Shown piece after piece: positions 4,829 to 60,930 of a stretch of DNA of 64,000 bases; positions within the stretch are counted from its first letter, which is position 1, and each line of letters begins with the position of its first letter. The translations under genes were made by a program, and so were the position numbers. The notes under the pieces were generated by a model, which did no database searches, was not told where the DNA came from, and saw nothing but the letters and a program-made list of their open reading frames with translations. This DNA comes from Spirochaetes bacterium ADurb.Bin133. Lineage in GTDB: Bacteria; Spirochaetota; GWE2-31-10; MWDO01. The stretch lies in NCBI GenBank assembly GCA_002070605.1, contig MWDO01000004.1, positions 8,184 through 72,183 of the forward strand, written 5' to 3'.

Positions 4829-4970
4829 GCCCGTCGGTCTTTTGGGGTGGGGAAAATAAATTCGACACATATGCGTCGCTGTGTTTCATCTTATAGTTTG
4901 ACGCATATGTGTCAATTTGAAGGAACTGTCTCAAGAGTTCTCATTCCTCCCTAAAAAACCGGCGAGGGTA
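4829..4970. repeat. Copy of the MITE-like palindrome-bearing intergenic element
   Basis: Left end GCCCGTCGGTCTTTTGGGG, units TTCGACACATATGCGTCG and TTTGACGCATATGTGTCAA, right end CCCTAAAAAACCGGCGAGGG. Confidence 0.6.
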
Positions 4971-5051
4971 CATTTTTAAAATAAAAATTGTTGCAATAAT
5001 TTTTCATTTGTAATATATTAATTGTAACAATCTAAATTTTGGAGAAATAAT

Positions 5052-5825
5052 ATGATTTTAAAAGATAAAATAGCGCTTATAACGGGAATAACTAACGAGA
5101 ATTCAATCGCTTACCACATTGCGAAAGGATTTTCCAGAGAGGGGGCTAAATTAATATTGACATATCAAGGATCTCGGTTGAAAGAGACGCTTGATAAATT
5201 AAGCGAGAATCTTAATGCAGAGTTGACGATGGAGTGCGACGCGACTAACGACGATCATCTTCATCATTTATTTACTGAAATCGACAAGAAATTCGGCGGA
5301 TTGGATATATTTTTACATGGCATAGCTTTCGCAAATAAAAACGAACTCGCCGGCGGAATAACCAATTCTACTTCCGAGGGATTTAAATTGGCAATGGACG
5401 TATCATGCTTTACCTTAATTAAAATGTCCAAATATTGTATTCCTCTTATGGAAAAAAGAGGCGGCGGCTCGATTATGACGTTGACTTATATCGGTTCCGT
5501 TCGGGCTTTGCCGGCGTATAACGCTATGGGATGCGCAAAAGCCGCGCTGGAATCTTCTGTCAGATACCTTGCTTACGAAGTTGGCGAGAAAAATATACGA
5601 GTAAACGCCTTATCTCCGGCGCCGATGAGGACTGTGGCGGCTCGCTCGATACCGGGTTTTTTAGATATGTACAATAATTTTGTTAAAAATACGTTTATGA
5701 AAAGACACGTCGATGGAGAGGATATCGCCGGTTCGGCTATCTATCTCGGATCTGACTTAAGTAAAATGGTTACCGGAATGGTTATTTATATTGACGGCGG
5801 TTTTCACTGCTCGGCGCTTATGTGA
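5052..5825 (+). CDS. fabI: Enoyl-[acyl-carrier-protein] reductase (NADH), FabI
   Basis: N-terminus KIALITGITNENSIAYHIAK is typical of FabI. SDR fold. Active-site Y/K region AYNAMGCAKAALE. RBS GGAGAAATAAT precedes the ATG. Confidence 0.9.
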   Translation: MILKDKIALITGITNENSIAYHIAKGFSREGAKLILTYQGSRLKETLDKLSENLNAELTMECDATNDDHLHHLFTEIDKKFGGLDIFLHGIAFANKNELAGGITNSTSEGFKLAMDVSCFTLIKMSKYCIPLMEKRGGGSIMTLTYIGSVRALPAYNAMGCAKAALESSVRYLAYEVGEKNIRVNALSPAPMRTVAARSIPGFLDMYNNFVKNTFMKRHVDGEDIAGSAIYLGSDLSKMVTGMVIYIDGGFHCSALM

Positions 5826-5849
5826 TATATTGCGGAATATAAATTAATT

Positions 5850-6365
5850 TTAGGTAGAGTGGACGTATTTGGGATAATTTTCGATTACGAGGGCGTATAA
5901 TAGCCGTTTTTGAGCGGCGATACTCAACAGTTGTGTCATTTTACCCAAAAAGTCTTTTTCCACTTTATCAATCCTTAATTTCTTACCAACAAGCTCAAGA
6001 AATCCTTCCAACCCGTATTTCATAACGCCGTTATAAAAAAACAGTATGATATCGCGGACTATCGAAGCTATACAGAATTCGTTATACAAGGAATGCCATT
6101 TTTTTATTTTTAAATAGTCCGCTTCGCTAATTCTAAGGTATTTATCCAGCCTTTTATCGTCGGAGTTATCTATAACGGCGTATTCGGAGCGGCAATTTCC
6201 GATTATTCTTTTCATCTTTAGGACTTTTTTGTCAATAAGGCGAAACATAGTTTCAAACAGTTTGCTGAACGTATTAATTTTGAACTCTTTTAGTAGAAAA
6301 TCTATGACATTGGTATTCATAGATTCCGATACTATAAAATGGAACAAATGTTTTTTGTTTTTCAT
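5850..6365 (-). CDS. Hypothetical protein
   Basis: A 171-codon ORF with protein-like composition. No recognisable motif. Confidence 0.4.
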   Translation of the reverse strand: MKNKKHLFHFIVSESMNTNVIDFLLKEFKINTFSKLFETMFRLIDKKVLKMKRIIGNCRSEYAVIDNSDDKRLDKYLRISEADYLKIKKWHSLYNEFCIASIVRDIILFFYNGVMKYGLEGFLELVGKKLRIDKVEKDFLGKMTQLLSIAAQKRLLYALVIENYPKYVHST

Positions 6366-6445
6366 AAAATTTTCTCCTTTTTCTTTTATATATATAACAA
6401 TTAAAAGTAGAAAACGTTATACAAAAACTTGTATAAATTTTTAGA

Positions 6446-6527
6446 AAATAACAAATAATTTACTAATCAAAAATATTTTTCTCATATGTGTCAATTTTCT
6501 CTTCTACTACCAACAAACCGTTGGGGG
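6446..6527. repeat. Partial copy of the MITE-like element: internal conserved block plus one CATATGTGTCAA unit and a degenerate right end
   Basis: AATAATTTACTAATCAAAAATATTTTTCTCATATGTGTCAATTTT matches the conserved internal block seen at 12166, 16296 and 60881. It ends CAAACCGTTGGGGG. Confidence 0.5.
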
Positions 6528-6614
6528 TAAAAATATTAATTTAGTTTTTGATTGATTTTTTTTGAAGGTTATTGTAATTTACAGGATGTTAAAGTAGTAC
6601 ATGAGGTGGAAGTT

Positions 6615-6833
6615 TTGAGAAAAAATGTTGTCGTTATAAATAAAGAGAGATGCAAATCATGCTCGCTATGTATTCCCGAATGCAGCCGGGGAATAATTAA
6701 AATTAGTCCGGAAATAAACAAAATGGGCTACCATCCTATTTATATTGAAGATATGAGTAAATGTATAGGTTGTACGTTGTGCGCGATAATATGCCCCGAT
6801 TCGGTTATAGAAGTTTATAGGGAAGAGGATTGA
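6615..6833 (+). CDS. korD: 2-oxoacid:ferredoxin oxidoreductase delta (ferredoxin) subunit. Start uncertain: TTG at 6615 sits behind a GGAGGTGGA RBS, while the ORF track begins at 6552.
   Basis: Two CxxCxxCxxxCP motifs (CKSCSLCIPEC and CIGCTLCAIICP). It directly precedes the alpha, beta and gamma subunit genes. Confidence 0.7.
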   Translation: MRKNVVVINKERCKSCSLCIPECSRGIIKISPEINKMGYHPIYIEDMSKCIGCTLCAIICPDSVIEVYREED

Positions 6834-6834
6834 A

Positions 6835-7905
6835 ATGAAAGATAAAATATTGATGAAAGGTAACGAAGCGTTAGCTGAGGCGGCGATAAGAGGGGGATGC
6901 AGATACTATTTCGGTTACCCTATTACCCCTCAGAACGAGGTTCCGGCGTATATGTCGAAGCGGCTTCCCGAAGTCGGCGGGGTATTTATTCAGGCTGAGA
7001 GCGAAACGGCTTCAATTAATATGGTTTACGGGGCGTGCGCTTCCGGAGCCAGGGCTATGACGTCGTCGTCTTCCCCGGGTATATCATTAATGCAGGAGGG
7101 AATTTCGTATATCGCCGGTTCGGAAGTTCCCGCGGTTATTATAAACGTTATGAGGGGAGGTCCCGGTCTTGGAAATATATCCCCTTCGCAGGCGGATTAT
7201 TTGCAATCGGTAAAGGGGGGCGGTCACGGCGATTACAATGTAATAATATTTGCGCCGTCGACGGTTCAGGAGCTTGCGGATTATGCTTACGATTCGTTCG
7301 ACGTTGCGTTCAAATACAGGAATCCCGTTATGATTTTGGCGGACGGCGTATTGGGACAGATATCCGAAGGGGTAATTCTTCCGGAATTTAAAGAGATAAA
7401 AGACGCGCCGGAGTGGGCTTTGGGCAAAGGAAAGGAGAGAAATATTATCAGGTCGCTTTTTTTGAATCCTGAAGATAGATTGACAACGCACAATATACAT
7501 CTGCAAGAGAAGTACAGGCGGATTGAAAAAGAGATTCAATATTTTGAAGAGTACAAATGCGAAGACGCCGAATATCTGATCGTCGCTTATGGAACTACTT
7601 CCAGAATTTGCAAATCGGCGATTGATAATATGAGAAATAACGGAATTAAGATCGGACTTTTCAGACCCATCTCGTTATGGCCGTTTCCTTACGCAAAGCT
7701 TAAAGAAAACGCCGCGTCTAAAGAGACTCTGTTTGTCGTAGAGATGGCTTACAATCAGCTGGAGCAAGACGTTCGGATTGGCGTTGAGGGCGCCGCTCCC
7801 ATAGAAAGGCTAAACAAACTGGGCGGTTCGGTATTTAACGAAGAGGAGATAATTGATTTTATTTCAAATTCTATAACTTTAAAGGGAAATAAGTATGTCG
7901 GATAA
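6835..7905 (+). CDS. korA: 2-oxoacid (probably 2-oxoglutarate):ferredoxin oxidoreductase alpha subunit
   Basis: The N-terminus KGNEALAEAAIRGGCRYYFGYPITPQNEV is the typical KorA/PorA motif. Confidence 0.9.
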   Translation: MKDKILMKGNEALAEAAIRGGCRYYFGYPITPQNEVPAYMSKRLPEVGGVFIQAESETASINMVYGACASGARAMTSSSSPGISLMQEGISYIAGSEVPAVIINVMRGGPGLGNISPSQADYLQSVKGGGHGDYNVIIFAPSTVQELADYAYDSFDVAFKYRNPVMILADGVLGQISEGVILPEFKEIKDAPEWALGKGKERNIIRSLFLNPEDRLTTHNIHLQEKYRRIEKEIQYFEEYKCEDAEYLIVAYGTTSRICKSAIDNMRNNGIKIGLFRPISLWPFPYAKLKENAASKETLFVVEMAYNQLEQDVRIGVEGAAPIERLNKLGGSVFNEEEIIDFISNSITLKGNKYVG

Positions 7906-8647: not shown

Positions 8648-8664
8648 TAATTATCAGAGGAGCA

Positions 8665-9204
8665 TTGATGTTAAATAAAATAGTACTAGCCGGATTTGGC
8701 GGTCAAGGCATTATTGTTGCCGGCAAACTTTTGGCTATATCTGCGATGAATGAAAAAAAGGAGACGACGCATTATCCTTCGTATGGAGCGGAGATGAGAG
8801 GCGGGACTTGCTCTTGCTCCGTAGTAGTTGGAGACAATCTTATTGCGTCTCCTATCATAAAAAATCCAGATATTGCCTTGATATTTAATAAACCGTCTAA
8901 AGAAAAATACGAACCTCTTATGAGACATGGCGGAATCATGATTTTAAATAAATCTTTAATTGAAGATACAAATTTGAGAGGAGATATAAAAAAATATTTG
9001 ATCAAAGCGTCCGAAATTGCCGAACAACTTGGAAGCGTTAAATCGACAAATATGGTCATGCTTGGGGCTTTTGTCAAGGCTACTTCGATAATCAAACTTG
9101 ACGCTATTATTAATTCATTGACCATAGCTTTTCCAAACGCTAAAGAGAAGGCTATAGAGTTAAATATTAGAGCTCTTGAAGCGGGATATAATAATTTGGA
9201 GTGA
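8665..9204 (+). CDS. korC: 2-oxoacid:ferredoxin oxidoreductase gamma subunit
   Basis: AGFGGQGIIVAGKLLA is the gamma-subunit motif. Confidence 0.85.
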   Translation: MMLNKIVLAGFGGQGIIVAGKLLAISAMNEKKETTHYPSYGAEMRGGTCSCSVVVGDNLIASPIIKNPDIALIFNKPSKEKYEPLMRHGGIMILNKSLIEDTNLRGDIKKYLIKASEIAEQLGSVKSTNMVMLGAFVKATSIIKLDAIINSLTIAFPNAKEKAIELNIRALEAGYNNLE

Positions 9205-9208
9205 GAAA

Positions 9209-11155
9209 ATGGGAAAATCAGTTGCGCAAAAAATCTTAGAAATTCATATAGTCGAAGGGGAGTATAAATACGGCTCTGAAATAGGAATCAAAATCGATCA
9301 AACCTTGACTCAAGACGCTACGGGAACTCTCGCATATCTTCAATTTGAGGCGATGAACGTTCCAAAAGTACAGACTGAAATATCGGTAAGTTACGTCGAC
9401 CACAACACTTTACAGACGGATAATAGGAATATGGACGATCATCTTTATCTTCAATCGGTAGCTTCCAAATACGGCATATACTATTCGAGACCCGGCAACG
9501 GAATTTGTCATCAAGTACATCTTGAAAGATTTGCCAGACCCGGTTATACTCTTTTAGGATCCGACTCGCATACTCCGACTTCGGGGGGGATCGGAATGAT
9601 AGCGATCGGCTCCGGCGGACTAGACGTAGCTTGCGCTATGGCGGGCGAGCCGTTTTTCTTGAAAGTTCCAAAAGTTATTAATATAAAATTAACGGGCAAA
9701 CTCAAACCGTGGGCGTCGGCAAAAGATATAATTTTACGCATATTAAAGATCAAAAGCGTAAAAGGCGGCGTCGGCGCTATAATAGAATATTCGGGCGACG
9801 GGCTTAAAAATCTATCCGTTCCTGAAAGAGCCGTTATTACTAATATGGGCGCCGAACTCGGGGCTACGACTTCAATTTTTCCCTCCGACGAGATAACGCT
9901 GGATTTTATGAAAAGACAGGGAAGAGAACATCAATTTGTAGAGATAAAAGCGGACGAAGACGCGATATACGACGAAACGATAGAAATCGACTTATCCTCT
10001 ATCGTAACTTACGCGGCGGCTCCACACTCGCCCGATAACGTAAAAAAAATCTCGGATTTAAGCGCTGTCAAAGTAAATCAGGTTTCGATAGGAAGTTGCA
10101 CAAATTCAAGTTATAGAGACTTATGGATCGTCGGAAAAATCCTCGAAGGGAAAGTTATAGCAAAAAACGTCTCTCTGACTATATCCCCCGGATCAAAACA
10201 GGTTTTTTCTATGATATCGAGAGACGGAACGCTAACTAGACTAATAGACGCCGGAGCGAGAATATTGGAATGCGCTTGCGGACCCTGCATAGGAATGGGT
10301 CAATCTCCAAACAGCGCCGGAGTATCTCTTAGGACTTTCAACAGGAATTTTGAAGGACGAAGCGGAACTAAAGACGCCGAAATATATCTCGTCAGTCCCG
10401 AAGTAGCGGCGATATCGGCTCTTAACGGGTTCATATCGGATCCGATGGAACATCTGGGAATTATGCCGGAATTTAAGTTCCCCGACGAATTTGTTATCGA
10501 CGACAGGTTTATTATACCGCCCGCTATCGAGCCGGACAAAGTCCAAATTATCCGGGGACCGGGTATCAAACCGCTTCCCGAACAGAAACCCTTGCCGGAT
10601 TCGATCGAGGCAAAAGTTATAATAAAAGTCGGGGACAATATTACGACGGATCATATACTTCCGGCCGGAGCAAAAGTATTGCCGTATAGGTCTGATATAC
10701 CAAAAATAAGCGAGTTCGCATTCGGCTCTATAGACCCCGAATTTTACAAAAAAGCGTTGAAAGAAAAAACGGGCGTCATAGTCGGGGGTGAAAATTACGG
10801 TCAAGGTTCGTCGAGAGAGCACGCCGCTCTTGCGCCCAAATACCTCGGCATAGCCGTCGTAATTGCGAAATCCTTTGCCAGAATTCATAAAGCGAATTTG
10901 ATCAACTTCGGCATAGTTCCTATGACTTTTGAAAACCCTGGCGACTACGACTCGATCAAAGAGACCGACCTTGTAAAGATATCTTCAATCAAAAGCGATA
11001 TTCAAGGGTCTAAGAAATGCGAAGCGTATATAAACGATAAGAAAATTATTTTAAACGTCGATCTTTCAGAAAGAGATATACAAATACTCCTGGACGGCGG
11101 AACGCTTGCGAATATAAAAAATAAATTTAGCAAAATAAAGATAGTCGAAGGATAA
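9209..11155 (+). CDS. Aconitate hydratase of the short (~650 aa) type, aconitase/IPM-isomerase family
   Basis: Aconitase-family motifs GSDSHT, GSCTNSS and ACGPC(I)GMGQ, plus a swivel-domain SSREHAA. ATG at 9209 is chosen over the in-frame TTG at 9176 because it follows the korC stop at 9204. Confidence 0.85.
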   Translation: MGKSVAQKILEIHIVEGEYKYGSEIGIKIDQTLTQDATGTLAYLQFEAMNVPKVQTEISVSYVDHNTLQTDNRNMDDHLYLQSVASKYGIYYSRPGNGICHQVHLERFARPGYTLLGSDSHTPTSGGIGMIAIGSGGLDVACAMAGEPFFLKVPKVINIKLTGKLKPWASAKDIILRILKIKSVKGGVGAIIEYSGDGLKNLSVPERAVITNMGAELGATTSIFPSDEITLDFMKRQGREHQFVEIKADEDAIYDETIEIDLSSIVTYAAAPHSPDNVKKISDLSAVKVNQVSIGSCTNSSYRDLWIVGKILEGKVIAKNVSLTISPGSKQVFSMISRDGTLTRLIDAGARILECACGPCIGMGQSPNSAGVSLRTFNRNFEGRSGTKDAEIYLVSPEVAAISALNGFISDPMEHLGIMPEFKFPDEFVIDDRFIIPPAIEPDKVQIIRGPGIKPLPEQKPLPDSIEAKVIIKVGDNITTDHILPAGAKVLPYRSDIPKISEFAFGSIDPEFYKKALKEKTGVIVGGENYGQGSSREHAALAPKYLGIAVVIAKSFARIHKANLINFGIVPMTFENPGDYDSIKETDLVKISSIKSDIQGSKKCEAYINDKKIILNVDLSERDIQILLDGGTLANIKNKFSKIKIVEG

Positions 11156-11160
11156 ATGGG

Positions 11161-11318
11161 GGCTAGGGCGGGCGCTTTTGATCGTCCTGAACCAAGCCGA
11201 AGGACGACGCATATGATGTTCAAGGAGGGAATTGACACATATGCGCCGCGCTACGCCTTGATGAAAAAATTGACACATATGTAACAAATATTTTTTATTC
11301 CCCAAAAAAACCGACGGA
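11161..11318. repeat. MITE-like element copy with three CATATG units and a clear right end TTCCCCAAAAAAACCGACGG. It forms the left flank of the PIN cassette.
   Basis: Contains GACGCATATG and two TTGACACATATG units. The 44-bp block at 11238..11281 is identical to 12203..12246. Confidence 0.6.
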
Positions 11319-11502
11319 TTACGTCTGTTTTTTACTTTTTTATTGAATAAATAATATGTTTTTGTTAGTATATAACAGTTTATGTAAAATGGTAAAAATA
11401 TTTTAAAAGATGAGATTATAAGTATAATAAAGGAGTCGTTATGCTCGCAAAAAACCTTTTCAATGTAATCTCCAAGATAAAGGCGCAATTGGAGCGCAAT
11501 TT

Positions 11503-11949
11503 ATGAGTAAAATTAAAATTTATCTGGATAATTGCTGTTTTAACAGACCTTACGACGACCAGAAACAACATAAAATTTTTCTTGAAACGGAAGCTAAACT
11601 TTTTATACAGCAGAGAATTAAAAATGGGGAATTTGACCTTATCTGGAGTTTTATTCTTGATTATGAAAATTCTGCAAATCCTGATATTGAAGCAAAAAAA
11701 GCTATTCAATTATGGGAAAATATTGCAATTAAATCAATTTTATTGTCTCCTGAATTACAAAGTAATGCAAAAATTTTCAATAATAAAGGTTTTGGAATAA
11801 AAGATTCGCTACATATAGCCTGCGCTATCGAATCAGGAGCAAAATATTTTTTAACAACTGATAAGGGAATATTGAATAAAAAACATTTTATCAGTAAAAT
11901 AACAATATTAAATCCTGTGGATTTTATAGTATTGGAGGAAAACTTATGA
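11503..11949 (+). CDS. PIN-domain protein (VapC-like putative toxin ribonuclease)
   Basis: Carries a conserved N-terminal acidic residue in IYLDNCCF and the typical later motif DSLHIACAIESGAKYFLTTDKGI. Low GC relative to its neighbours. Confidence 0.75.
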   Translation: MSKIKIYLDNCCFNRPYDDQKQHKIFLETEAKLFIQQRIKNGEFDLIWSFILDYENSANPDIEAKKAIQLWENIAIKSILLSPELQSNAKIFNNKGFGIKDSLHIACAIESGAKYFLTTDKGILNKKHFISKITILNPVDFIVLEENL

Positions 11950-12155
11950 AAACAGATGCAATAATAAAACAAGTTGCTTTTAAGGCAATATTTGAAAAAC
12001 TTGATATTGTTGAAGCTGAAAGGTTTATAGCATTGATCAAAAGGGATAATTTTGATTATACAGAGTGGAGAAAAAATTTATGGGAAGATTTAACTATTGA
12101 AGAGTTGTCTAAAAATGCGATGGATTATTGCGATAAAAGGCAGGGATCCTGTTAG
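11946..12155 (+). CDS. Small protein translationally coupled to the PIN gene (ATGA overlap). Putative cognate partner or antitoxin.
   Basis: A 69-aa ORF with a 4-nt overlap. Its stop lies inside the degenerate left end of the next repeat element. Confidence 0.4.
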   Translation: MKTDAIIKQVAFKAIFEKLDIVEAERFIALIKRDNFDYTEWRKNLWEDLTIEELSKNAMDYCDKRQGSC

Positions 12156-12299
12156 TTTTTTAGGGAATAAAAAAATAATTTACTAATTTAAAATATTTGT
12201 TTCATATGCGCCGCGCTACGCCTTGATGAAAAAATTGACACATATGCGTCAAAAAAAATCGCCCATATGCGTCAAATTTCCAAAAAACCGACGGCGCGA
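12148..12299. repeat. MITE-like element copy forming the right flank of the PIN cassette
   Basis: Degenerate left end CCTGTTAGTTTTTTAGGG, a conserved internal block, three CATATG units, and right end TTCCAAAAAACCGACGGCGCG. Confidence 0.6.
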
Positions 12300-12395
12300 G
12301 CAAAAGGGATAATTAATTTGATTTTCAATAAAAAAGGATTATAATGTATGATAATAAAAATAAAATTCGAGGGAGAAAAGGAATTCTTTATATCT

Positions 12396-13094: not shown

Positions 13095-13108
13095 CTAAGG
13101 GAACGTTT

Positions 13109-13513: not shown

Positions 13514-13625
13514 TTTTTTAGTTGATTTATCAGAATAAAAATTTTATCATAATTCCGCTTAAATTTGCTTAGATTTCTGTTAAAAAGAATTGCGTATTGG
13601 AATATAAATTCGGAGGAGAACTCAA

Positions 13626-14918: not shown

Positions 14919-14936
14919 AATAGAAGGAGCGTTAAT

Positions 14937-16197: not shown

Positions 16198-16271
16198 AAA
16201 TCATCCTGAAACATCTTTTTTTTTGTAATAGCATTATTTAATAAGAAATAAAAGGAATTTATCAAAAATTT

Positions 16272-16434
16272 GCGCGCCCCGTCGGTTTTTTGGGGGATAA
16301 AAAATAATTTGCTAGTTAAAAATATTTGTTTCATATGTGTCAATTTTAATAGGCGCCTCAATCCGACGCATATGTGTCAATTTATCCTTAGCTCCATATG
16401 TGTCAATTTTTCTCCCGCCCCAAAAAACCGACGG
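16272..16434. mobile_element. Complete MITE-like element with terminal inverted repeats and three CATATGTGTCAA units
   Basis: Left end GCGCGCCCCGTCGGTTTTTTGGGGG and right end CCCGCCCCAAAAAACCGACGG are inverted repeats of each other. The conserved internal block GATAAAAAATAATTTGCTAGTTAAAAATATTTGTTTCATATGTGTCAATTTT is present. Confidence 0.65.
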
Positions 16435-16447
16435 AGTATAAAATTTG

Positions 16448-17236
16448 CTAAATATCCGCTTTTACTTTCCACGCTTTTTGTATCGGGGTAAGTTTTCCTT
16501 GAGACCATAATAACAATAAATTTTTCAAGTCCTCGTTTTTAAAAGTTATTGATTCTCCTTTTTTTAATACGGAAATTTTATCTTCTATTGCTAAATAACT
16601 TTTCGGAATTAGGTCTCTAAACTCTTTGCTCTCGACAATGTCTTGCAACGGCTTGGCGGGAATCATTTTTTCATTATAGGCTATTTTATAAAATTCCTGC
16701 GAGATACCGTTGCCCTTGGTAATAGAATCTACAGCGACCGTTTTTAATTTAAGATTATTGATAAGGGCAAGACGATATTTATACTCTTCCGCCGATATAT
16801 ACTCTCCGTACGAGTGAAAGGATTGGTTTTTGGAAAAAACAAAACCGTTTGTTACGAGGCTTCCGTCTTTATTTATATTTGAAGTTCCCTCTTTAGAAAA
16901 TATTTTTGATTTATCCGCAACGTCGGTATTATTTACAGTTTTTGTTAAGGTTTTAGCTATCGTCGTCGCAGTCGAGATTATTTCGGAGGTCTCTTTAATA
17001 TCCGACAAATCTTTTTGGATTTTTTCAACGTCTATTATTTCATTTTTTATCTTTTTTAAGTCGTTATCTTTCAATACTTTGGACTCGATTACTTTATTTG
17101 GAAAATTTATAGAGTAGTTGTCGCCTTTGTTTAATCCGAACCAATTGAAAAAATATATTCCGACAATAAAAATAATCGACAATAAAACCGCGCCTAAAAG
17201 AGAAAGTATAATAAGAATAAAACGCTTTGATATCAT
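16448..17236 (-). CDS. Hypothetical membrane-anchored protein
   Basis: N-terminal transmembrane helix ILIILSLLGAVLLSIIFIVGIYFF. K/E-rich. Confidence 0.45.
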   Translation of the reverse strand: MISKRFILIILSLLGAVLLSIIFIVGIYFFNWFGLNKGDNYSINFPNKVIESKVLKDNDLKKIKNEIIDVEKIQKDLSDIKETSEIISTATTIAKTLTKTVNNTDVADKSKIFSKEGTSNINKDGSLVTNGFVFSKNQSFHSYGEYISAEEYKYRLALINNLKLKTVAVDSITKGNGISQEFYKIAYNEKMIPAKPLQDIVESKEFRDLIPKSYLAIEDKISVLKKGESITFKNEDLKNLLLLWSQGKLTPIQKAWKVKADI

Positions 17237-21310: not shown

Positions 21311-21392
21311 GGCGCCCCGTCGGTTATTTGGGGATTGAGAAATATTTGTTCCATATGCGTCAAATTTCTCTTCCCTAAAAAACCGCCGGGGT
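21311..21392. mobile_element. Short MITE-like element with inverted-repeat ends and a single CCATATGCGTCAA unit
   Basis: GGCGCCCCGTCGGTTATTTGGGG ... CCCTAAAAAACCGCCGGGGT. Confidence 0.6.
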
Positions 21393-21421
21393 AAAACAAA
21401 TGAGACTGTTTGAAAAGGTAG

Positions 21422-24894: not shown

Positions 24895-25068
24895 ACGCCG
24901 CGCCCCCGGTTTTTTGCGGTAAAAAAATGACACATATGCGACTCCTTTCGTATAGGGACGTCCGGTCGTATGAGTTCCTGTGGGGGAAAAATTGACGCAT
25001 ATGTGTCATTATGGAAATCGACGCATATGAGCTGCATATATAACGCGCCGCGCGTCGATAAAAAGGGC
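24895..25068. repeat. MITE-like element copy with three CATATG units and degenerate ends
   Basis: Left end ACGCCGCGCCCCCGGTTTTTTGCGG, followed by TGACACATATGCGAC, TTGACGCATATGTGTCA and TCGACGCATATGAGC. Confidence 0.55.
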
Positions 25069-29984: not shown

Positions 29985-29985
29985 T

Positions 29986-34447: not shown

Positions 34448-34469
34448 TAATTGAAAAAATTACCTATAA

Positions 34470-34579
34470 CGGCGCCCGTCGGTTTTTTGGGAGAGGGGAA
34501 TTGACACATATGACGTTAAAGATAAAATTGACACATATGGAGCAAATATTGTTATCCCCCAAAAACCGACGGGGCGCCC
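34470..34579. mobile_element. Prototype ~110-bp MITE-like element with perfect terminal inverted repeats and two TTGACACATATG units
   Basis: CGGCGCCCGTCGGTTTTTTGGG ... CCCCCAAAAACCGACGGGGCGCC. The ends are reverse complements over about 20 bp. Confidence 0.7.
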
Positions 34580-34712
34580 TATTATATAGATAATACCAAA
34601 ATTTATTATTTTTAAATAGTTATTTTTATAACATTTTGTATAAATAAAATTTGTTGATATATTTATTGTCGTAAAGTAATATTTTATTTATTATAAGCGA
34701 AAGAGGGCGCTT

Positions 34713-35945: not shown

Positions 35946-36767
35946 ATGGCGCAAAATTCTTTAGGGCAAAAAACAACATATGTTTCAAATTACGATCCTT
36001 CCGTATTGTACGCTATTCGCAGGTCTGAGAGTAGAAAAAAAAACGGCGTCGACGAATCCGGTTTTTATGGATACGACAGGTGGAATTGTTACGAATTTAG
36101 TTTTTTAAATAACAACGGCAAACCGATTCAAAAAGTTTTGCGTTTTGCCTACGGTTCCGATTCTCCAAATATTGTGGAATCAAAATCTCTAAAACTTTAT
36201 CTGTACGGATTTTCTGCGACGCGTTTTTTTGACGAAAAAGACGTGATTTTGACAATTAAGACCGATTTGGAAAATATTATACTTTCGCCGATCGAATACG
36301 TCGATTTATACGATCACAACTATTCTTATTCGATTGAAAAAATTAGTAATAAAAATCTTTTAGACAATCTTGAAGTAGAGGTAAACGGTTATAAACCGGA
36401 CAGATCCCTTTTGAAAACGGAGAAAATTGATAGTTTTAAAAAAATTGAACGATTTTCTTTTTTATTTAAGACTAATTGCCCGGTAACAGGTCAACCGGAT
36501 TGGGCTACCGTCCATATAAAATATATATCAAATAATATAATAGAGGATTCGTCGCTATTAAAATATATCGTCTCTTTCCGCAATCATGCCGATTATCACG
36601 AATCCTGTTGCGAAAAAATTTATTCGGACGTCTACGCGATCTCTTCTCCCCGATACCTTCTTGTCGAGTGTTTTTTTACTCGAAGAGGCGGAATAGATAT
36701 AAATCCGATGAGAGTCAATCAACCGATAGAGAGTCTTGAGTTGGAAAAACGTTATTGGAGACAGTAA
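35946..36767 (+). CDS. queF: NADPH-dependent 7-cyano-7-deazaguanine reductase QueF, bimodular type II (YqcD-like)
   Basis: QueF motif ESKSLKLYL and active-site Cys region FKTNCPVTGQPDW. Also LLKYIVSFRNHADYHESCCEKIY and TRRGGIDINP, which align with E. coli QueF from memory. Confidence 0.9.
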   Translation: MAQNSLGQKTTYVSNYDPSVLYAIRRSESRKKNGVDESGFYGYDRWNCYEFSFLNNNGKPIQKVLRFAYGSDSPNIVESKSLKLYLYGFSATRFFDEKDVILTIKTDLENIILSPIEYVDLYDHNYSYSIEKISNKNLLDNLEVEVNGYKPDRSLLKTEKIDSFKKIERFSFLFKTNCPVTGQPDWATVHIKYISNNIIEDSSLLKYIVSFRNHADYHESCCEKIYSDVYAISSPRYLLVECFFTRRGGIDINPMRVNQPIESLELEKRYWRQ

Positions 36768-38152: not shown

Positions 38153-39277
38153 ATGAACTGTCAAGATATAGGCGATTTTATTTTATCCCGCAATAATATT
38201 TTTTATGCGATAATAAAAGATGATTTTAGTTTAGTTTTTCCGGATAATTCTCTGTTATCGTATCTAGGCGTCGATATTCCGCAAGATTCTTCAAGTCTCG
38301 AAAACGTTTTTCCTGAATTATTCGGAATGGACGAAGAAATTCAGGATATTTTAAACGGCAACAACGGCGAAATAACCATTCCTTTAATAAACAGAAAGCT
38401 GCCGGATAAAACAATATTTTTTGATTTAAGCGTTTTAAATAATCCCGCCGATCGCAAAACGGCTCTTTTGGTCGTTAAAGATACGACGCTTATCGGAGAG
38501 GATATTCAAAAACTCCAACAAAGCAGAAACGACGTCGATCTACTGCAGAAACAAATTAATAAAATTAACGAAGAACTAAAAGAATCAAACGCGACTAAGG
38601 ATAAATTCTTTTCGATAATCGCTCACGATTTGCGCTCGCCGATAAGTTCCTGTATCAGCTATTTAGACTTGCTAAACCATCATAAAGAGTTTTCAGAGCA
38701 ACAAAAAAACAACGTCTATCTCAATTTAAATAAATATCTGAAAAACACCTTAAGTTTGCTTGAAAATTTACTTTTGTGGGCTAGAAGTCAAAAGGAACTT
38801 TTAAATTTTGAGATATCCGACTTTGATCTGTATGGAATAGCGTTAGAAAACGTCGAAATTTTTCAAAACAACTTAAATCAAAAAAACATTCAAATCTCAA
38901 ACAACATACCCGAAGGAGTTATTGTTAACGTCGATTATGAAATGTTTAACACCATAGTAAGAAACATTTTATCAAACGCGATTAAGTTTACAAAATCGGG
39001 CGGTAAAATTATAATAGATTACTCGTCTAACGATGAATTTCACAATTTGATAATTATCGATAACGGAATAGGTATGGAACAAGCTAAAATAGACAATCTT
39101 TTTAAGATCGATAAAGTCTCTTCGACTCCGGGAACCAACGGGGAAATGGGAAGCGGACTTGGATTAACGTTGTGTCATGAATTTATAAAGAAGCATAATG
39201 GGAACATATCTGTAGAAAGCGAACTAAACGTCGGAACAAAATTTATTATTTCAATACCAAAAGGAAAGTCTGTATGA
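38153..39277 (+). CDS. Cytoplasmic sensor histidine kinase (HisKA + HATPase_c); no adjacent response regulator
   Basis: H-box FSIIAHDLRSPIS, N-box NAIKFT and G-boxes DNGIGM and GSGLGL. Confidence 0.85.
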   Translation: MNCQDIGDFILSRNNIFYAIIKDDFSLVFPDNSLLSYLGVDIPQDSSSLENVFPELFGMDEEIQDILNGNNGEITIPLINRKLPDKTIFFDLSVLNNPADRKTALLVVKDTTLIGEDIQKLQQSRNDVDLLQKQINKINEELKESNATKDKFFSIIAHDLRSPISSCISYLDLLNHHKEFSEQQKNNVYLNLNKYLKNTLSLLENLLLWARSQKELLNFEISDFDLYGIALENVEIFQNNLNQKNIQISNNIPEGVIVNVDYEMFNTIVRNILSNAIKFTKSGGKIIIDYSSNDEFHNLIIIDNGIGMEQAKIDNLFKIDKVSSTPGTNGEMGSGLGLTLCHEFIKKHNGNISVESELNVGTKFIISIPKGKSV

Positions 39278-39600
39278 AATTATCAATAAATCAAAAACAA
39301 AGATTAACTTCGATAATGTTGCAATATGCGATTATTTTCGGATACGGTCTTTTCGAGGAAAATATGGAAATTCTTATAGAATCTAACAGATTAATAGACG
39401 TAATAAACGACTCCCACCCTAACGACGACGAAGTGTCAAAATTGTTATCAATCGTTAGGCAAAGACAGCTTCTGTTTGGGAGCGGTATAGTTTCGACGGA
39501 CTCCTACGTCCACAAAGAGTGCGAACAACTAATTAGAGCGCTTAAAAATTTAAATAAACCAAAGCTTTATATCGGCGACTTAAAATACAAAAGACGTTAG
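39274..39600 (+). CDS. Hypothetical protein, start overlapping the HK stop (ATGA)
   Basis: A 108-codon ORF translationally coupled to the kinase gene. Confidence 0.35.
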   Translation: MKLSINQKQRLTSIMLQYAIIFGYGLFEENMEILIESNRLIDVINDSHPNDDEVSKLLSIVRQRQLLFGSGIVSTDSYVHKECEQLIRALKNLNKPKLYIGDLKYKRR

Positions 39601-39603
39601 AGA

Positions 39604-39732
39604 GCCCGCCGGTTTTTTTGGGGGAGGAGAAATTGACGCATATGCGACGGCGTCGATAACGCGCGACAATTGTTGCATAAAAATTCGACGCATATGTGTC
39701 AATTGTTTTTTTATCCCCAAAAAACCGACGGC
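39604..39732. mobile_element. MITE-like element with inverted-repeat ends and two palindrome units
   Basis: GCCCGCCGGTTTTTTTGGGGG ... TCCCCAAAAAACCGACGGC, with TTGACGCATATGCGAC and TTCGACGCATATGTGTCAA inside. Confidence 0.65.
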
Positions 39733-39756
39733 TTACGGCGCTAAATTAAAATATTC

Positions 39757-39787
39757 TTGACAAAAATATTTTAATTTGTAGTATAAT
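39757..39787 (+). promoter_or_regulatory. Sigma-70-like promoter (TTGACA-N19-TATAAT) for the OmpA-like gene, directly abutting the MITE-like element
   Basis: TTGACA at 39757 and TATAAT at 39782. The 19-nt spacer is longer than optimal. Confidence 0.35.
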
Positions 39788-48166: not shown

Positions 48167-48254
48167 CTTAATAGCCTCCTAATAAATATTTCATTATAAT
48201 ATACAAAAAAAAATCGATTTGGTAAATATATTTTATCATTATTTTTTACCAAGA

Positions 48255-48465
48255 GACGCATATGCGTCAGACCAAAACCGCATATGCGTCAAATTACTCT
48301 TAACATCATATGTGTCAATATTTCTTTCTACGACAATTGTCGCGCGTTATCGACCCGGCGCGTATGTCAAATTCTCTCGGGGAGCATGGCGTCTCATATG
48401 TGTCAATTTTTGTCGAGGAGCGACGCGGCGTCGCATATGCGTTGATTTATTTTGACACATATGCG
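48255..48465. repeat. Array of six 18-bp palindrome units (CATATG-centred, TTGAC/GTCAA arms) with variable spacers
   Basis: CATATG centres lie at 48259, 48281, 48307, 48396, 48434 and 48458. Sub-repeat TCGAGGAGCGACGCG-N-CATATG. Confidence 0.65.
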
Positions 48466-48576
48466 ACGATTTTTTCATCGGGGAGCGACGGGGCGCAAAA
48501 TACCGATTAAAAAGATAGAAAACAATTCAATTTAAGTGTATAATATAGGTTAAATAAAAAAAAGCAAGGCGTATAG

Positions 48577-52828: not shown

Positions 52829-52904
52829 ATTTTCGGAATTTACCGCTCTCCGCTATCTTTATTTTTAAAAAAAGATCGACAAGCGCTTGAAATTATGTCG
52901 CAGT

Positions 52905-53075
52905 CTGTCGGCGTTTTGGGGCTAAAAATTTTTGACACATATGCGTCGCATAATAATTCGACGCATATGTGTCAATTTCTTCATCGAGAAGCGGCGCGTA
53001 TCATATGTGTCAATTTCTCATCGAGGAGCGACGCGTATCATATGTGTCAAATTCTATCAAGACGCGTCGAGGCGC
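52905..53075. repeat. Array of four to five palindrome units with left end TGTCGGCGTTTTGGGG
   Basis: CATATG centres lie at 52939, 52964, 53002 and 53039. Tandem sub-unit TCATCGAGGAGCGACGCGTATCATATGTGTCAATTTC. Confidence 0.65.
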
Positions 53076-53256
53076 ATAATATATCTAAAAAATATTTGAC
53101 AATTTTTCAATTTAGTTTATACTCGTTCGATATTGAAAAAATATTTCTATCGCCCGATTGAAAACTACGGACGGCGAAAGCGCGAAGCGTTTTCAGCGGG
53201 ATATACGGCATTCTTTGAAACGCAATATTTAACAACTTAATTAAGGAGATTTTGGC

Positions 53257-54558: not shown

Positions 54559-54562
54559 AGAG

Positions 54563-55702: not shown

Positions 55703-55738
55703 TCCTGTTTCAATAATTATAATTCGGAGAAATATCTT

Positions 55739-56596: not shown

Positions 56597-56667
56597 AAAG
56601 AAACCGTGTTTCAGACGTAAAACGATAGATATGGATAGATACAAGCGCATAAATTTGATTCATACGG

Positions 56668-59600
56668 TTACGATTTACTTTTATTCCTTAGATAATACAG
56701 TTGCGGAATAATTATTTTATTAGGTTTGTTATTTCCGTCGTAAAAAATATCGATGATCGGTATATTGAAGTCCTTTTGAATTTTTCTAAAAATTGACGCG
56801 GAAACTACCCCGGGACAGCAGAATAACGGATTGAGATGGACCATAGCGTCTACGGTATTATGTTTTATATAATAGAGCGCTCGTCCGACGTTCATCGAGG
56901 TTTCGCCGGCTATAAAATTATTTATCCCAAACTCTTCCATTAGTTTAACCTGCTCCTCCATCGGCGGTTCGAACGAATCCTCAAGTAACTCTTTAAAAAC
57001 ATTCTCATATCGCCTTTCAAAGAGCGATAAGCCGCGTTTGTATTTGATATCAAGCCCGTTATCTCTATAATCGGCGTCCAAAAAGTGAGCCGCGGTTTCC
57101 GTAAAGGAAGGAACTAGAACTTCGCCGTCAAGTTCTTCTATTAGAGAGTATATATCGTCGTTAAGAATAAAGTTATATTTTGCGTAAAGATCGCCGAGTA
57201 CTGCGATACGGGGCTTTCTAACGCTCATATCGACTTGAAGGTTTTGAAATAAATTTTTAATTTCTTTAGCGGCTTCCATTAATGGCTTTTTGTTAGTCAG
57301 ATTGGTTTTGATTAACTCCATCGATCGATTTAGCGCGTCGTCTATATCGGGCGGGTTCTTCGTATAAGGGCGGAATTTATAATATAGTTTATATAAAATT
57401 GATCCCAAAATGTTTACTTCGAGAATATTAACGTTCAACTCTTTTGGAAGTTCGTCGATATGCTTCATTGAGTTGCCGTTGGCGATTTTTATCTTATCGT
57501 AGCCGGCTTTCTCCGAAGCCAATTCGAGAAGTATTGAATATTGATTAAAGTTGCACGCCATACATAGAGTAGGGAGATAGACTATACAATTTTCAGGATT
57601 TAAAGAATATTTTTCTATCGATTCAATTAAGGAACCCGAGATAGCGACGTTCGGCATACACTCCCCGCCCGAAGCGTATCTATATCCTTTGTTTATAATT
57701 TTTTGATCGAGAGGCATTACTATGGCGTTATATCCGTAAGCGGTAAATACAGATTTTTGAAGTTCGCTGATAATGGGACTTACATAAGGTATGAGAACGG
57801 TATCGTTCGGTTCGATAGAATCGTTTTTATACGACTTTATCTCTATGTTTTTGGGAGCGGCGGATTTATGATTTTTGAAGGTCTCAATCGCCGCTTCTAT
57901 TCGAGTTTGATAACCGACGTCGCTGGAGTGTTCGTCGAGCTGAATTATGAGATACGGTTTGTTGTAGCGATTCATAATATCTTTGAAATAACTTATGAGA
58001 TACGAGTCGGGACTGCATCTAAAGCATGTCAGAAATACCGGAAAAAGATTTTCGGTTTTGGCGGCAAATTCGGCCGCGCATATTATCTCTTGTCCGAAAA
58101 TCCAGTGCGCTTTATCAATGAATCTTTTAGCGTAATCGAGTTCTTGAGGTTTAAGTTCTAGCATCGATTGATAAAGAATATCAAATCCGTAATTTTCAAA
58201 CGTTTTTGGGATATTTAAATTTACGACGTTATCAAAAAAAGTATACGGACGCCCGAGAAAGAGAATTTTACTTTTATCGACGTTTTTTAGTATATTCTCG
58301 CCGGCTCTCCTAAATTTCTTTTTGTTTTCAAGGAATTTGTTATAAGAATCTAAAAACATCTCTCTGAGTTTTTCAGAGTCGATATTTGTTATTTTGGAAG
58401 TTATATCGATCAATTCTACGGAAATATCGTTGGTATTAGATTTGTTAAACTTCATTTTTGGCGAGATTAATTTATCTTTAATATTAAGAGCGGTTAGATT
58501 ATCTATAATCGTTGCGGCGTATTCCGAGTAGTAACAATAATACCCGTCGTTGATTTTATCGATGAAATACTCCGTTTCAACCTCATTTTTTATCAAACTT
58601 TTATTGTTGATAATCGTCGGAAAAAAAATGTAGTCGACTTTTTTGTTTTGCAACGACTCGACGAGACCGTGAGCGAGCAGCATAGGCGCGCAAAAGTCGG
58701 AATTGACCAATTTAGAGCCGTTTTTCATCTTTGCTTGGGAGGGCTCCTCTATTATTACTTCAAAACCCGCTTTTTCAAAAAAACTTTTAAATAGCGGATA
58801 GAATTCCGTTAAATAGAGCGTTTTTGGAATTCCGATAATTTTTCCGTTTTTTTCAACTCCGGAAATATTTTCGATAAACGTCGAATTAAATATCTTATCG
58901 ATCGCCGTTTTGGTCTCTTTAACTTTTACTTTATGATCTTCGTATTCTCTGCCGCATTTTAGCCCCCACGCGACTTTGTTTCCGCGAACTTCGTATATCG
59001 AAAGGGCGCATTTGTTTACGCACAGTTCGCAAACTTCCGTAGATAATTTAAATTCAAAGTCTATTCCTGAAAACTTAGACTTTTGATAATTTCTCTCTTT
59101 CAAAATGACCGCGATTCCCAGAGCGCCGGTCAGATGACAATATTTCGATACAAATATCGGCTTTTTGATCTCCTTCTCAAATACGGCGACAAGAGCTTTA
59201 TTTCGCGCGGTGGCTCCCTGAAAAAATATTTTATCTCCAAGATTTTCCCGACCCGCCACTTTAGAGAGGTAGTTGTCTCTTACGCTGTAAAGAACGGCGG
59301 TTATTATCTCTTCTTTGGAATAGCCCTCTGAAAGAAACAAATTTAGATCTCTTTCCATATACACTGTACATCTATCCGAGGTATATGGGGCTTTTCTTCC
59401 AAGCGCCATTTTTGATATATCGTCGAGCGTTATGTCCAGGCGTTTCGCTTGCTCCTCGATAAACGAGCCGGTGCCGGCCGCGCAAACGTAATTCATCGTC
59501 GAACTTACGACGTTTCCATTTTTTAAAAGAGTGAATTTTGAGTCCTGTCCGCCGATCTCGATAATTGTGTCGACGTCGTTGGAAAGAAAGGTCGCGCCTC

Positions 59601-60780
59601 TCGCGTGAGCAGTTATCTCGTTTATTTCCAGATCCGCGTTAATTATCTCTTTGACTAATTTTCTGCCGGAGCCGGTCGTTCCGACTCCTAATATGTTTAT
59701 CTTTTTCCCTGAAAATATTTTTTTAACCTTTTGAAAAATATTTTGAGTCGCTTTTACCGGATCGCCCGCGGTTTTTGTATATAATCCGTATAGGATTTCA
59801 TTATTTTCGTCCGTAATTATCGACTTTGTGCTGGTAGAGCCGATATCAATCCCGATATAAACGTCGGCGACCTCTTTTACTTCCGAATATTTTGTTATCT
59901 CAATGTTGTCTTCGATATAAAACTCGTCCTCGTAAAAATTTGGGTAGTCGGTCGACTCGAGTTTTAGTTCGTCTCTTATCTCTCTTTTGGTAGAGATATT
60001 AGATATAACATTTTTTAAATTCAGGTCTTTTTCTTTACCCAAAAGCGCCGCGCCGATAGCGTTAAAATATGCGCTTTCAGGTATAATTTTGACGGGGCTT
60101 CCCAAAATTTTTGAAAGTTCGGAAACGATTTTTTTATTCTTGCTCACTCCGCCCGCAAATAAAACTCCGCCTTTTAACGTCCTCCCTTTCAACAAATTTG
60201 CAAGAACTCCGCGAGCCATACCTTCGCAAAGTCCCGCGGCGATCGCCTCTTTAGTAAAGCCCTCGGCTTGCGAGTGTATAATATCGGATTTTGCAAAAAC
60301 GGCGCATCTGGTAGCGATAACCGGAGTTTTCCCTTGAAATTTATACGATAATTCGCCTAACTCCTCGCTGGTAAGTCCTATTCTTTCCGCTTGTTGATCG
60401 ATAAAACTTCCGGTGCCCGAAGCGCATAAAGGATTGATAGCGTGTTCTATATAGTTAAAATTTTCGTCAAGAATAATTAACGAATAAGATTCGCAACCGA
60501 TAGTGAGAATATTTCGGCAACCGGTCGATAAATACCTATTTGACTCAACGCTCGCAAGTATCGTATCTATAGTTTTAATTCCTTTTAGATCGACGCTCCC
60601 GCAAATTCCGTAAGATTCAATATCTTTTAAGCTAAATTTTTGAAGCAAAATCTCGATTTCTTCTATTAAGTTCTTGAAAATATTGCCGTTATGAGGAAAA
60701 GTTTTATGAAAAACTACGCCTGAATCTTCCAAGAGAACTATCGAAATATTTTTTGAGCCTATATCGATTCCTAATTTCAT
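56668..60780 (-). CDS. Giant 1370-aa fusion protein: two BadF/BadG/BcrA/BcrD-type (activase-like) ATPase domains plus a 2-hydroxyglutaryl-CoA dehydratase D-component-like domain. PlsA/PlsR (anaerobic plasmalogen synthase)-like architecture.
   Basis: Two N-terminal actin-fold ATPase modules (LGIDIGSKNISIVLLE.. and YIGIDIGSTSTKSII..) with conserved Cys pairs. C-terminal HgdB-like module with FCAPMLLAHG and CPGVVSA motifs. Confidence 0.8.
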   Translation of the reverse strand: MKLGIDIGSKNISIVLLEDSGVVFHKTFPHNGNIFKNLIEEIEILLQKFSLKDIESYGICGSVDLKGIKTIDTILASVESNRYLSTGCRNILTIGCESYSLIILDENFNYIEHAINPLCASGTGSFIDQQAERIGLTSEELGELSYKFQGKTPVIATRCAVFAKSDIIHSQAEGFTKEAIAAGLCEGMARGVLANLLKGRTLKGGVLFAGGVSKNKKIVSELSKILGSPVKIIPESAYFNAIGAALLGKEKDLNLKNVISNISTKREIRDELKLESTDYPNFYEDEFYIEDNIEITKYSEVKEVADVYIGIDIGSTSTKSIITDENNEILYGLYTKTAGDPVKATQNIFQKVKKIFSGKKINILGVGTTGSGRKLVKEIINADLEINEITAHARGATFLSNDVDTIIEIGGQDSKFTLLKNGNVVSSTMNYVCAAGTGSFIEEQAKRLDITLDDISKMALGRKAPYTSDRCTVYMERDLNLFLSEGYSKEEIITAVLYSVRDNYLSKVAGRENLGDKIFFQGATARNKALVAVFEKEIKKPIFVSKYCHLTGALGIAVILKERNYQKSKFSGIDFEFKLSTEVCELCVNKCALSIYEVRGNKVAWGLKCGREYEDHKVKVKETKTAIDKIFNSTFIENISGVEKNGKIIGIPKTLYLTEFYPLFKSFFEKAGFEVIIEEPSQAKMKNGSKLVNSDFCAPMLLAHGLVESLQNKKVDYIFFPTIINNKSLIKNEVETEYFIDKINDGYYCYYSEYAATIIDNLTALNIKDKLISPKMKFNKSNTNDISVELIDITSKITNIDSEKLREMFLDSYNKFLENKKKFRRAGENILKNVDKSKILFLGRPYTFFDNVVNLNIPKTFENYGFDILYQSMLELKPQELDYAKRFIDKAHWIFGQEIICAAEFAAKTENLFPVFLTCFRCSPDSYLISYFKDIMNRYNKPYLIIQLDEHSSDVGYQTRIEAAIETFKNHKSAAPKNIEIKSYKNDSIEPNDTVLIPYVSPIISELQKSVFTAYGYNAIVMPLDQKIINKGYRYASGGECMPNVAISGSLIESIEKYSLNPENCIVYLPTLCMACNFNQYSILLELASEKAGYDKIKIANGNSMKHIDELPKELNVNILEVNILGSILYKLYYKFRPYTKNPPDIDDALNRSMELIKTNLTNKKPLMEAAKEIKNLFQNLQVDMSVRKPRIAVLGDLYAKYNFILNDDIYSLIEELDGEVLVPSFTETAAHFLDADYRDNGLDIKYKRGLSLFERRYENVFKELLEDSFEPPMEEQVKLMEEFGINNFIAGETSMNVGRALYYIKHNTVDAMVHLNPLFCCPGVVSASIFRKIQKDFNIPIIDIFYDGNNKPNKIIIPQLYYLRNKSKS

Positions 60781-60861
60781 AAGAATTTCCTTAACAAAAA
60801 GATGTATTTATAAATATTTATATTTAATTACTATATAAATGTCAAATTAATATTATTTGTA

Positions 60862-60930
60862 TCCCGTCGGGTTTTTTGGGAATTAAAAATATTTGTTTCA
60901 TATGTGTCATTTTATTTGACACATATGCGA
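60862..60930. repeat. Truncated MITE-like element (left end plus conserved block plus two units) with no right inverted repeat
   Basis: TCCCGTCGGGTTTTTTGGG-AATTAAAAATATTTGTTTCATATGTGTCATTTTATTTGACACATATGCGAC. Confidence 0.55.

Follow-up and report, generated by a model that had tools for sequence, protein, structure and literature searches.

Why should every copy of a repeat lie in an intergenic gap that contains the start of a gene? The question is raised by a window of 64,000 nucleotides from Spirochaetes bacterium ADurb.Bin133 (contig MWDO01000004.1, positions 8,184 to 72,183 of the forward strand), in which twelve repeat loci are scattered between genes. The initial annotation, made from the sequence letters and their open reading frames (ORFs), found each locus upstream of at least one gene and proposed that the repeats are promoter donors or operator arrays. 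The present analysis points to another answer: the twelve loci belong to one lineage-specific family of non-autonomous transposable elements, some as insertions and others as decayed remnants, a reading to which we give a probability of about 0.85.

The window has about 37% G+C, and its proteins recur in anaerobic-digester metagenomes and in metagenome-assembled genomes (MAGs) labelled Spirochaetota or 'Spirochaetes bacterium ADurb.Bin133'. The repeat unit is the 12-mer CATATGYGTCAA. The window contains it 26 times, shuffled versions of the window 0.00 times (n=100), and all 26 occurrences fall inside the twelve loci, which come at a density of about one per 5 kb. The full palindrome TTGAC-N8-GTCAA occurs only twice. 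Rfam (gathering thresholds) and a tRNA scan gave no matches in the window, and a literature search on the unit sequence returned cloning primers only.

The structure of the elements becomes clear from related DNA. A metagenome scan for a terminal repeat together with a unit found at least 114 contigs, about 89 of which are low-GC relatives amounting to about 740 kb in total. These related contigs (labelled L plus a number) are a sample selected for containing elements, and their gene calls come from a simple ORF caller. They contain 48 unique complete copies among the matches listed, and a wider search gave 53 copies of 99-1,025 bp, again among those listed. The 48 copies have 22-bp terminal inverted repeats, GTAWYCCGTCRGTTTTTTGGGG, at both ends, and the element ends read GTAAT, GTAAC or GTATC. 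At precisely 5 nt out from the 17-nt core of the repeat, agreement between the 9-bp flanks is at its maximum (mean 4.44 of 9 positions, versus 3.02 +/- 0.20 for shuffled pairings). Flanks match at seven or more of the nine positions in 13 of the 48 copies, and target-site duplications of this quality average 82% A+T in the 53-copy set. Short copies, of 99-484 bp, are without an ORF.

Insertion is demonstrated by a pair of filled and empty sites. L042 has a 111-bp copy between two copies of TAAAAATTT, and the same locus in L056 has a single TAAAAATTT and no element, the flanks being otherwise identical. The recent insertion in L042 (6897-6940) lies directly upstream of an apparent native promoter (TTGACA, 17-bp spacer, TATTAT). 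With terminal inverted repeats, a target-site duplication with its empty site, small size, many copies and no transposase gene of its own, the family fits the structural definition of MITEs (miniature inverted-repeat transposable elements).

The body of each copy is an array of one to eight CATATGYGTCAA units. Among 453 unique units, YGTCAA stands on one side only of the central CATATG in 83%, and the full palindrome is present in 12%. The conserved site is thus CATATGYGTCAA(T)TT, and not the symmetric TTGAC-N8-GTCAA that had been put forward as the operator of a dimeric regulator. Unit spacings cluster at 24-28, 36-40 and 45-52 bp. Since the spacers between units belong to a few sequence families, these clusters mostly reflect common descent, and helical phasing was set aside as their meaning.

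The short copies have a parent. A search for more widely spaced terminal repeats revealed a recurring 171-aa ORF in an element of 0.7-1 kb, laid out in the order terminal repeat, 150-460 bp with the units and the conserved leader, ORF, a further 15 bp or so, and second terminal repeat. The gene is present in 25 copies in the fetched loci. A terminal repeat lies 148-466 bp upstream in nearly all of them, and some 15 bp past the stop codon another begins, whole or as a remnant, with no room for a second gene in any of the 25. Terminal repeats enclose the gene on both sides in L017 (6090-6818) and in seven further copies, which gives the parent the structure of a mobile insertion cassette; the L017 element also has a target-site duplication with 7/9 matches. 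Short copies align only with positions 627-745 of the parent, its last 120 bp or so, and are thus internal-deletion derivatives of it.

The window has its own copy of the gene at 5850-6365 on the minus strand, 88% identical in DNA sequence to the complete L017 element over 638 bp. It encodes the 171-aa protein, a predicted tandem ribbon-helix-helix protein, and is the sole ORF of the parent element. Its upstream region, 6366-6535, holds the leader, the proximal unit (6483-6494) and a degenerate terminal repeat, CCAACAAACCGTTGGGGGT, as seen in an alignment of 12 upstream regions. This region is the repeat locus first placed in the gap 6366-6614. The repeat at 6438-6530 is real, but it is the upstream end of the gene-carrying element and not a free-standing copy.

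The gene is under strong purifying selection. At least nine paralogues occur in a single MAG, 15 gene copies are intact, and their median ratio of nonsynonymous to synonymous substitution rates (dN/dS) is 0.13. In L130 (2815-3774), compared with L128 and L129, the DNA to the right of the gene encodes a 77-aa ORF and a Memo-family gene in place of the ferredoxin and pyruvate:ferredoxin oxidoreductase genes of the window. Many other contigs end at this junction. The switch of neighbourhood is either recombination between element copies or an assembly chimera.

The 171-aa protein has no sequence match in Pfam, NCBIfam or PDB, and its close relatives are all hypothetical proteins of the same lineage. 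In a set of 1.8 billion representative proteins, clustering at 50% identity gives the family only 13 clusters. An AlphaFold2 model made with distant homologues in the alignment (pLDDT 74) shows two beta-alpha-alpha motifs, with a strand at residues 5-13 and helices at 14-28 and 33-43, then a strand at 72-80 and a helix at 81-93, and a long helix from residue 99; a model from close homologues only (pLDDT 45) was not used. The best Foldseek matches are three F-plasmid relaxosome chains, which we take to be its three TraY molecules, and single-chain Arc (best E-value 0.12, target TM-score 0.63). F TraY is described as a monomer that holds a whole dimer fold; the sites to which it binds are adjacent and three in number, two of them direct and the third inverted (PMC12117103). 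In the family studied here, two distant members match the PHROG 'Arc-like repressor' (E = 4e-6), and several have weak Pfam RHH matches. On the strength of the model and these distant members, the protein is likely a tandem ribbon-helix-helix DNA binder in a single chain. Two 190-aa ORFs (MKYDFS...YE.I.W), in L032 (1250-1822) and L035 (6828-7403), look like further distant relatives of the family.

A small multi-copy gene flanked by repeats also brings to mind the REP (repetitive extragenic palindromic) sequences and bacterial interspersed mosaic elements (BIMEs) that are spread by a REP-associated tyrosine transposase (RAYT). The unit would then be a REP hairpin and the 171-aa protein the transposase. 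The repeats are short, intergenic and in mixed orientation, copies lie close to the 3' ends of genes, and some units read GACG...CGTC, resembling CGTC-tagged REPs (PMC3733652). The protein does not have the look of such an enzyme, however. It matches no Pfam or NCBIfam model, transposase families included, and it has no His-hydrophobic-His motif: the spacing in HLFHF is wrong and its first His is not conserved. The predicted fold, beta-alpha-alpha twice, is not a transposase fold. Single-strand transposition of the HUH type is not known to yield terminal inverted repeats or a target-site duplication, and this family has 22-bp terminal inverted repeats, a 9-bp duplication and a clean empty site. 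The 83% of units that are one-sided are not palindromes either. With neither an HUH/Y1 transposase nor the expected absence of terminal repeats and duplication, a REP-type origin is hardly credible.

The units appear to belong to the protein. A proximal unit and a leader of about 115 bp are conserved upstream of the gene in all copies of the 12-region alignment, and the units of the short copies derive from the upstream region of the 171-aa gene. In a related species, L125 (2501-3004) encodes a 43%-identical homologue with TGACACATATG about 100 bp upstream of its start codon and no terminal repeats. This locus is syntenic with the 71-bp convergent gap of the window at 56597-56667, the flanking gene being 83% identical to its window counterpart, and the homologue may be an older, immobile form of the gene. 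It lies tail to tail with a 285-aa gene. A distant single-copy paralogue, P0114, known from a single locus, has a terminal repeat and GCGCATATGTGC upstream. The units are therefore probably binding sites of the element's own 171-aa protein, as judged from their conserved position. The operator arrays of the initial annotation survive in altered form: the units do derive from the upstream region of a gene whose product is a predicted DNA binder, but the candidate binder is encoded by the element and the sites are probably not those of a host regulator.

A mechanism can be outlined on this basis. The elements insert through a cut with a 9-bp stagger, and the cut would be made by a transposase that is supplied from elsewhere and recognises the terminal repeats. 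Short copies arise by internal deletion of the gene-carrying parent. The ribbon-helix-helix protein would bind the units as side-by-side monomers, in the manner of F-plasmid TraY, and if each monomer mimics a dimer, this would explain the dyad core CATATG. Such binding may serve self-repression, or an accessory assembly of the element ends for transposition, or both. The number of units changes by recombination between them.

Placement relative to genes was the starting point. A gap table built from the ORFs of the window, with spacer counted after element removal, has elements in 5 of 8 divergent gaps (1,500 bp of spacer), 7 of 40 co-directional gaps (2,202 bp) and none of 8 convergent gaps (188 bp in total). 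The pattern of twelve loci in gaps with a gene start and none in a convergent gap is thus reproduced, as is the ordinary hairpin in the first convergent gap (2839-2877). The statistical support was called modest, and we agree: if placement is proportional to spacer length, arithmetic on the gap table gives a chance of about 55% that twelve elements miss every convergent gap. The seven co-directional gaps do contain a gene start, but each also holds the 3' end of a gene, and they are therefore uninformative on promoter association.

The related contigs are more telling. Counted with our own ORF caller, de-duplicated by flanking sequence, and on contigs chosen for containing elements, 16 of 85 convergent gaps have an element (3.3 per kb of spacer), as do 65 of 379 co-directional gaps (2.2 per kb) and 43 of 69 divergent gaps (3.1 per kb). 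Gaps between two 3' ends are hit and not avoided, and a specific tie to promoters or gene starts does not hold up. Two convergent examples confirmed by eye are a complete copy between 275-aa and 711-aa genes in L067 and a 355-bp copy between 946-aa and 288-aa genes in L097. Of the elements in co-directional gaps, 49 lie towards the upstream stop codon and 16 towards the downstream start (p = 5e-5). All seven co-directional cases in the window are nearer the upstream stop, and the copies at 11156 and 39601 begin at the base after it.

These counts bear on the idea that the elements are promoter donors or host operator arrays, with TTGACA -35 boxes or binding sites that control adjacent host genes and are retained near gene starts for that purpose. 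Units do contain TTGACA or TTGACG, and per gap the divergent class is hit most often (62% versus 17-19%). A promoter-like module (TTGACA, 17-bp spacer, TTTAAT or TTTTAT) lies beside one terminal repeat and reads outward, and four free-standing copies of it in the window, at 11270 (+), 34528 (+), 16343 (-) and 60910 (-), point to gene starts. A promoter scan also called TTGACA-based promoter-like sites inside the copies 4829-4971 and 16274-16439. The scan requires an A at position 2 of the -10 hexamer, which the module lacks, and the module was not called. In the related contigs the module runs with the genes in 5 of 15 co-directional cases and against them in the other 10; a further six copies are in convergent gaps. 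As for the good promoter at 39757, TTGACA-N19-TATAAT, it is present as described but does not follow the element directly: the right end of the element is at 39736, and the promoter lies about 20 bp outside, in what is a native promoter region. Per-base density is alike in convergent gaps, and copies favour the upstream stop over the downstream start. Promoter donation is not supported as a general property of the elements, and control of adjacent genes as the reason for their placement is improbable.

A link to promoters is not needed to explain the placement. Intergenic positions are expected because selection removes insertions in genes and in the stretches between promoter and start codon, because the target is AT-rich, and because convergent spacer is scarce in the window. 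AT-rich stretches upstream of promoters may be preferred targets, adding to the excess in divergent gaps. MITEs in general are described as mainly intergenic (PMC3184786, PMC11602168).

The preference for the 3' side raises a further possibility, that the elements act as RNA, the transcribed terminal repeats pairing so that the upstream mRNA is either stabilised or terminated by a long hairpin. Six strands of four complete copies were tested, and every one forms a long hairpin between its terminal repeats (z = -3.7 to -8.1); the co-directional elements that directly follow stop codons (11156 and 39601, and the 49 versus 16 overall) would be well placed for such a role. Such a hairpin is automatic for any terminal inverted repeat, however. 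No consistent T run follows it, many copies are in divergent gaps, which have no 3' end, and no Rfam family matches. An RNA effect could be a side effect, and it leaves the origin and spread of the family unexplained. As an account of the loci it is distinctly improbable. Hairpins of transcribed copies may affect neighbouring mRNAs, with no evidence of selection for such an effect.

The reading as non-autonomous transposable elements has points against it as well. A search between terminal repeats 0.6-4 kb apart found no transposase: what they enclose is either the 171-aa gene or host genes with a short copy on each side. No other multi-copy, transposase-like ORF is present in about 0.9 Mb of related DNA. 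No autonomous partner with a transposase and the same terminal repeats was found among the matches listed, in fragmented assemblies; contigs break at the repeats, and a rare autonomous copy may have escaped notice. Two viral-contig scans and searches of plasmid and phage proteins gave nothing related. Strong purifying selection on a gene with at least ten copies is unlike a passive passenger gene. The ribbon-helix-helix assignment comes from a model of moderate confidence with a best Foldseek E-value of 0.12, the window protein has no significant family match, and a profile comparison with CopG falls in the expected register but is not significant. That the protein binds the units is something we infer, and the gap counts share the selection of contigs given above.

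One variant takes the missing transposase at face value. The 0.7-1 kb element could be self-sufficient or semi-autonomous, with the 171-aa protein needed in cis, assembling the ends through the arrays and recruiting a nuclease, whether of the host or foreign; its gene would then be no passenger. Because a gene with many copies is under strong purifying selection, a cis requirement for transposition stays conceivable, and we consider this variant unlikely but worth keeping in view. As a possible source of the terminal repeats, the IS66 family has ends beginning GTAA, 8-9 bp duplications and tnpA/B/C genes; the element ends and the 9-bp duplication fit this pattern, and no IS66-type genes were seen.

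The other loci of the window range from complete copies to remnants. The copy at 4829-4971, in the divergent gap 4759-5051, is complete, with the left terminal repeat GCCCGTCGGTCTTTTGGGG, the right terminal repeat at 4949-4971 and units at 4868 and 4904, the latter a full palindrome. By eye it has ATTTTTAA on both sides (4821-4828 and 4972-4979), in an uncertain register. The complete copy at 16274-16439 has three units and no mismatch in the 17-nt core of either terminal repeat. Its 9-bp target-site duplication, AAAATTTGC, at 16265-16273 and 16440-16448, is likewise perfect, and the copy is present in all strain contigs retrieved. A minimal copy of about 83 bp at 21312-21394 consists of the left terminal repeat, one unit and the right terminal repeat, with ACAAATG on both sides, and its RNA folds into a hairpin (z = -6.1). 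Two more complete copies are at 34471-34578 (two units, in the divergent gap 34448-34712, RNA hairpin z = -6.4) and at 39601-39736. The latter starts at base 1 after the stop codon of the gene 39274-39600, has an RNA hairpin with z = -8.1, and is present in all six strain contigs retrieved.

Truncated and decayed copies make up the rest. The left-truncated copy at 11156-11323 begins directly after the stop codon of the gene 9176-11155 and has three units and a right terminal repeat at 11301-11323. The copy at 12144-12299 also has three units, with the right terminal repeat at about 12280-12299 and a degenerate left one, CCTGTTAGTTTTTTAGGG, that contains the stop codon of a 69-aa ORF (11946-12155). 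This ORF overlaps the end of a 148-aa ORF (together 11503-12155), and by size and arrangement the two are a possible toxin-antitoxin pair. A remnant at 24898-25060 has the left terminal repeat GCGCCCCCGGTTTTTTGCGG and three units, its right terminal repeat being no longer recognisable, and a six-unit array at 48250-48495, in a divergent gap, has no recognisable terminal repeats. The remnant at 52905-53075 has a degenerate left terminal repeat and four units, two of them tandem 37-nt units, and that at 60859-60950 (divergent gap 60781-61039) keeps two units and a left terminal repeat.

The arrays are dynamic. An 88-bp indel that distinguishes L023 from L105 lies precisely between one GACGCATATG unit and another, and the size of four further loci varies between strains. 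Such differences in unit number indicate that arrays grow and shrink by recombination between units. Many contigs end inside these repeats, which break metagenome assemblies of this spirochaete lineage. In L053 (476-1420) a 194-aa ORF, by eye like a Uma2-type endonuclease, has a complete element upstream and a partial element downstream, and the pair could act as a composite unit.

The element family turned up only in a single group of sludge-digester spirochaetes. A scan of genome collections for unit pairs returned one fragmented spirochaete MAG and one apparent chance match in Roseobacter. The MAG, Go_SlDig_bin_318, is the sole GTDB genome match (L008 93-200, L007 5230-5531 and L010 1680-1760) and shows the motif in two further guises: five copies in a 22-bp tandem array, TTTTACTTTGACACATATGTTG, upstream of a gene, and coding repeats of a Thr-rich lipoprotein, where GACGCATATGTGTCAAC encodes DAYVST; two matches in this MAG were accordingly rejected as elements.

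The CATATG core is also the NdeI site, and 32 of the 33 such sites in the window are inside the twelve loci. There is one site outside them, at 35977, where base composition predicts about 21 and a 5-mer Markov model 8.4. In the 740 kb of related contigs, 523 sites are inside elements and 114 outside, an outside depletion of only about two-fold. Avoidance of CATATG driven by restriction was dropped as the main explanation, since the depletion over 740 kb is this small and many other CA/TG hexamer palindromes are depleted too. Hexamer palindromes of the window are skewed more widely: ACTAGT, CACGTG, GCATGC, GCTAGC, TGGCCA and others are absent, and TCCGGA and GCCGGC are over-represented 6-fold and 7-fold. 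This skew may come from restriction-modification pressure or from dinucleotide bias (few CA/TG and CTAG).

The family resembles several known systems without coinciding with any of them. Bacterial MITEs such as the Correia elements of Neisseria and RUP of Streptococcus pneumoniae are likewise short and multi-copy, with terminal inverted repeats and target-site duplications, are almost wholly intergenic, form RNA hairpins when transcribed and encode no transposase. Here the body consists instead of 12-nt units in variable arrays, drawn from upstream of a gene for a DNA-binding protein and not from the ends of a known insertion sequence; nor was a parent insertion sequence with a transposase identified. 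Correia elements are reported to duplicate TA on insertion, and the duplication here is 9 bp. Mobile insertion cassettes, which carry passenger genes within inverted repeats of insertion-sequence type and no transposase, are like the parent in its terminal repeats, duplication and single non-transposase gene. The gene here, however, has at least nine copies in one MAG and a dN/dS of 0.13, and its own upstream sites form the body of the short copies, behaviour not expected of a passive passenger.

F-plasmid TraY, the best fold match, is likewise a single chain with two ribbon-helix-helix motifs, predicted in the case of the 171-aa protein. TraY binds adjacent direct and inverted sites on the processing region of a mobile element (PMC12117103). 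The two have no detectable sequence similarity, and a long helix is added at the C-terminus of the 171-aa protein. The neighbourhood has no relaxase, oriT or conjugation genes, and the element inserts with a target-site duplication and not by conjugative nicking. Pneumococcal BOX elements and enterobacterial BIMEs are also modular, with variable internal units between conserved ends and copy numbers that vary between strains, but they have no demonstrated target-site duplications and no family-specific protein gene, and their sequences are unrelated. What is new in comparison with described MITEs is the internal array of what look like protein sites, together with a parent whose one product is a TraY-like DNA binder, no transposase having been identified.

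For the question asked at the outset the result is mostly deflationary, the pattern of the twelve loci being ordinary MITE behaviour. What is worth keeping is a dense family with insertion polymorphism between strains, probable protein-site arrays, and a parent gene that selection holds intact. Should the 171-aa protein have a part in transposition, or silence the elements, small transposons would have a new mode of construction, and if it is required in cis, the parent would be a new kind of insertion-sequence-like element. In either case this uncultured digester spirochaete would have hundreds of arrays between its genes for one protein to bind, and under a cis requirement the protein would coat them throughout the genome.

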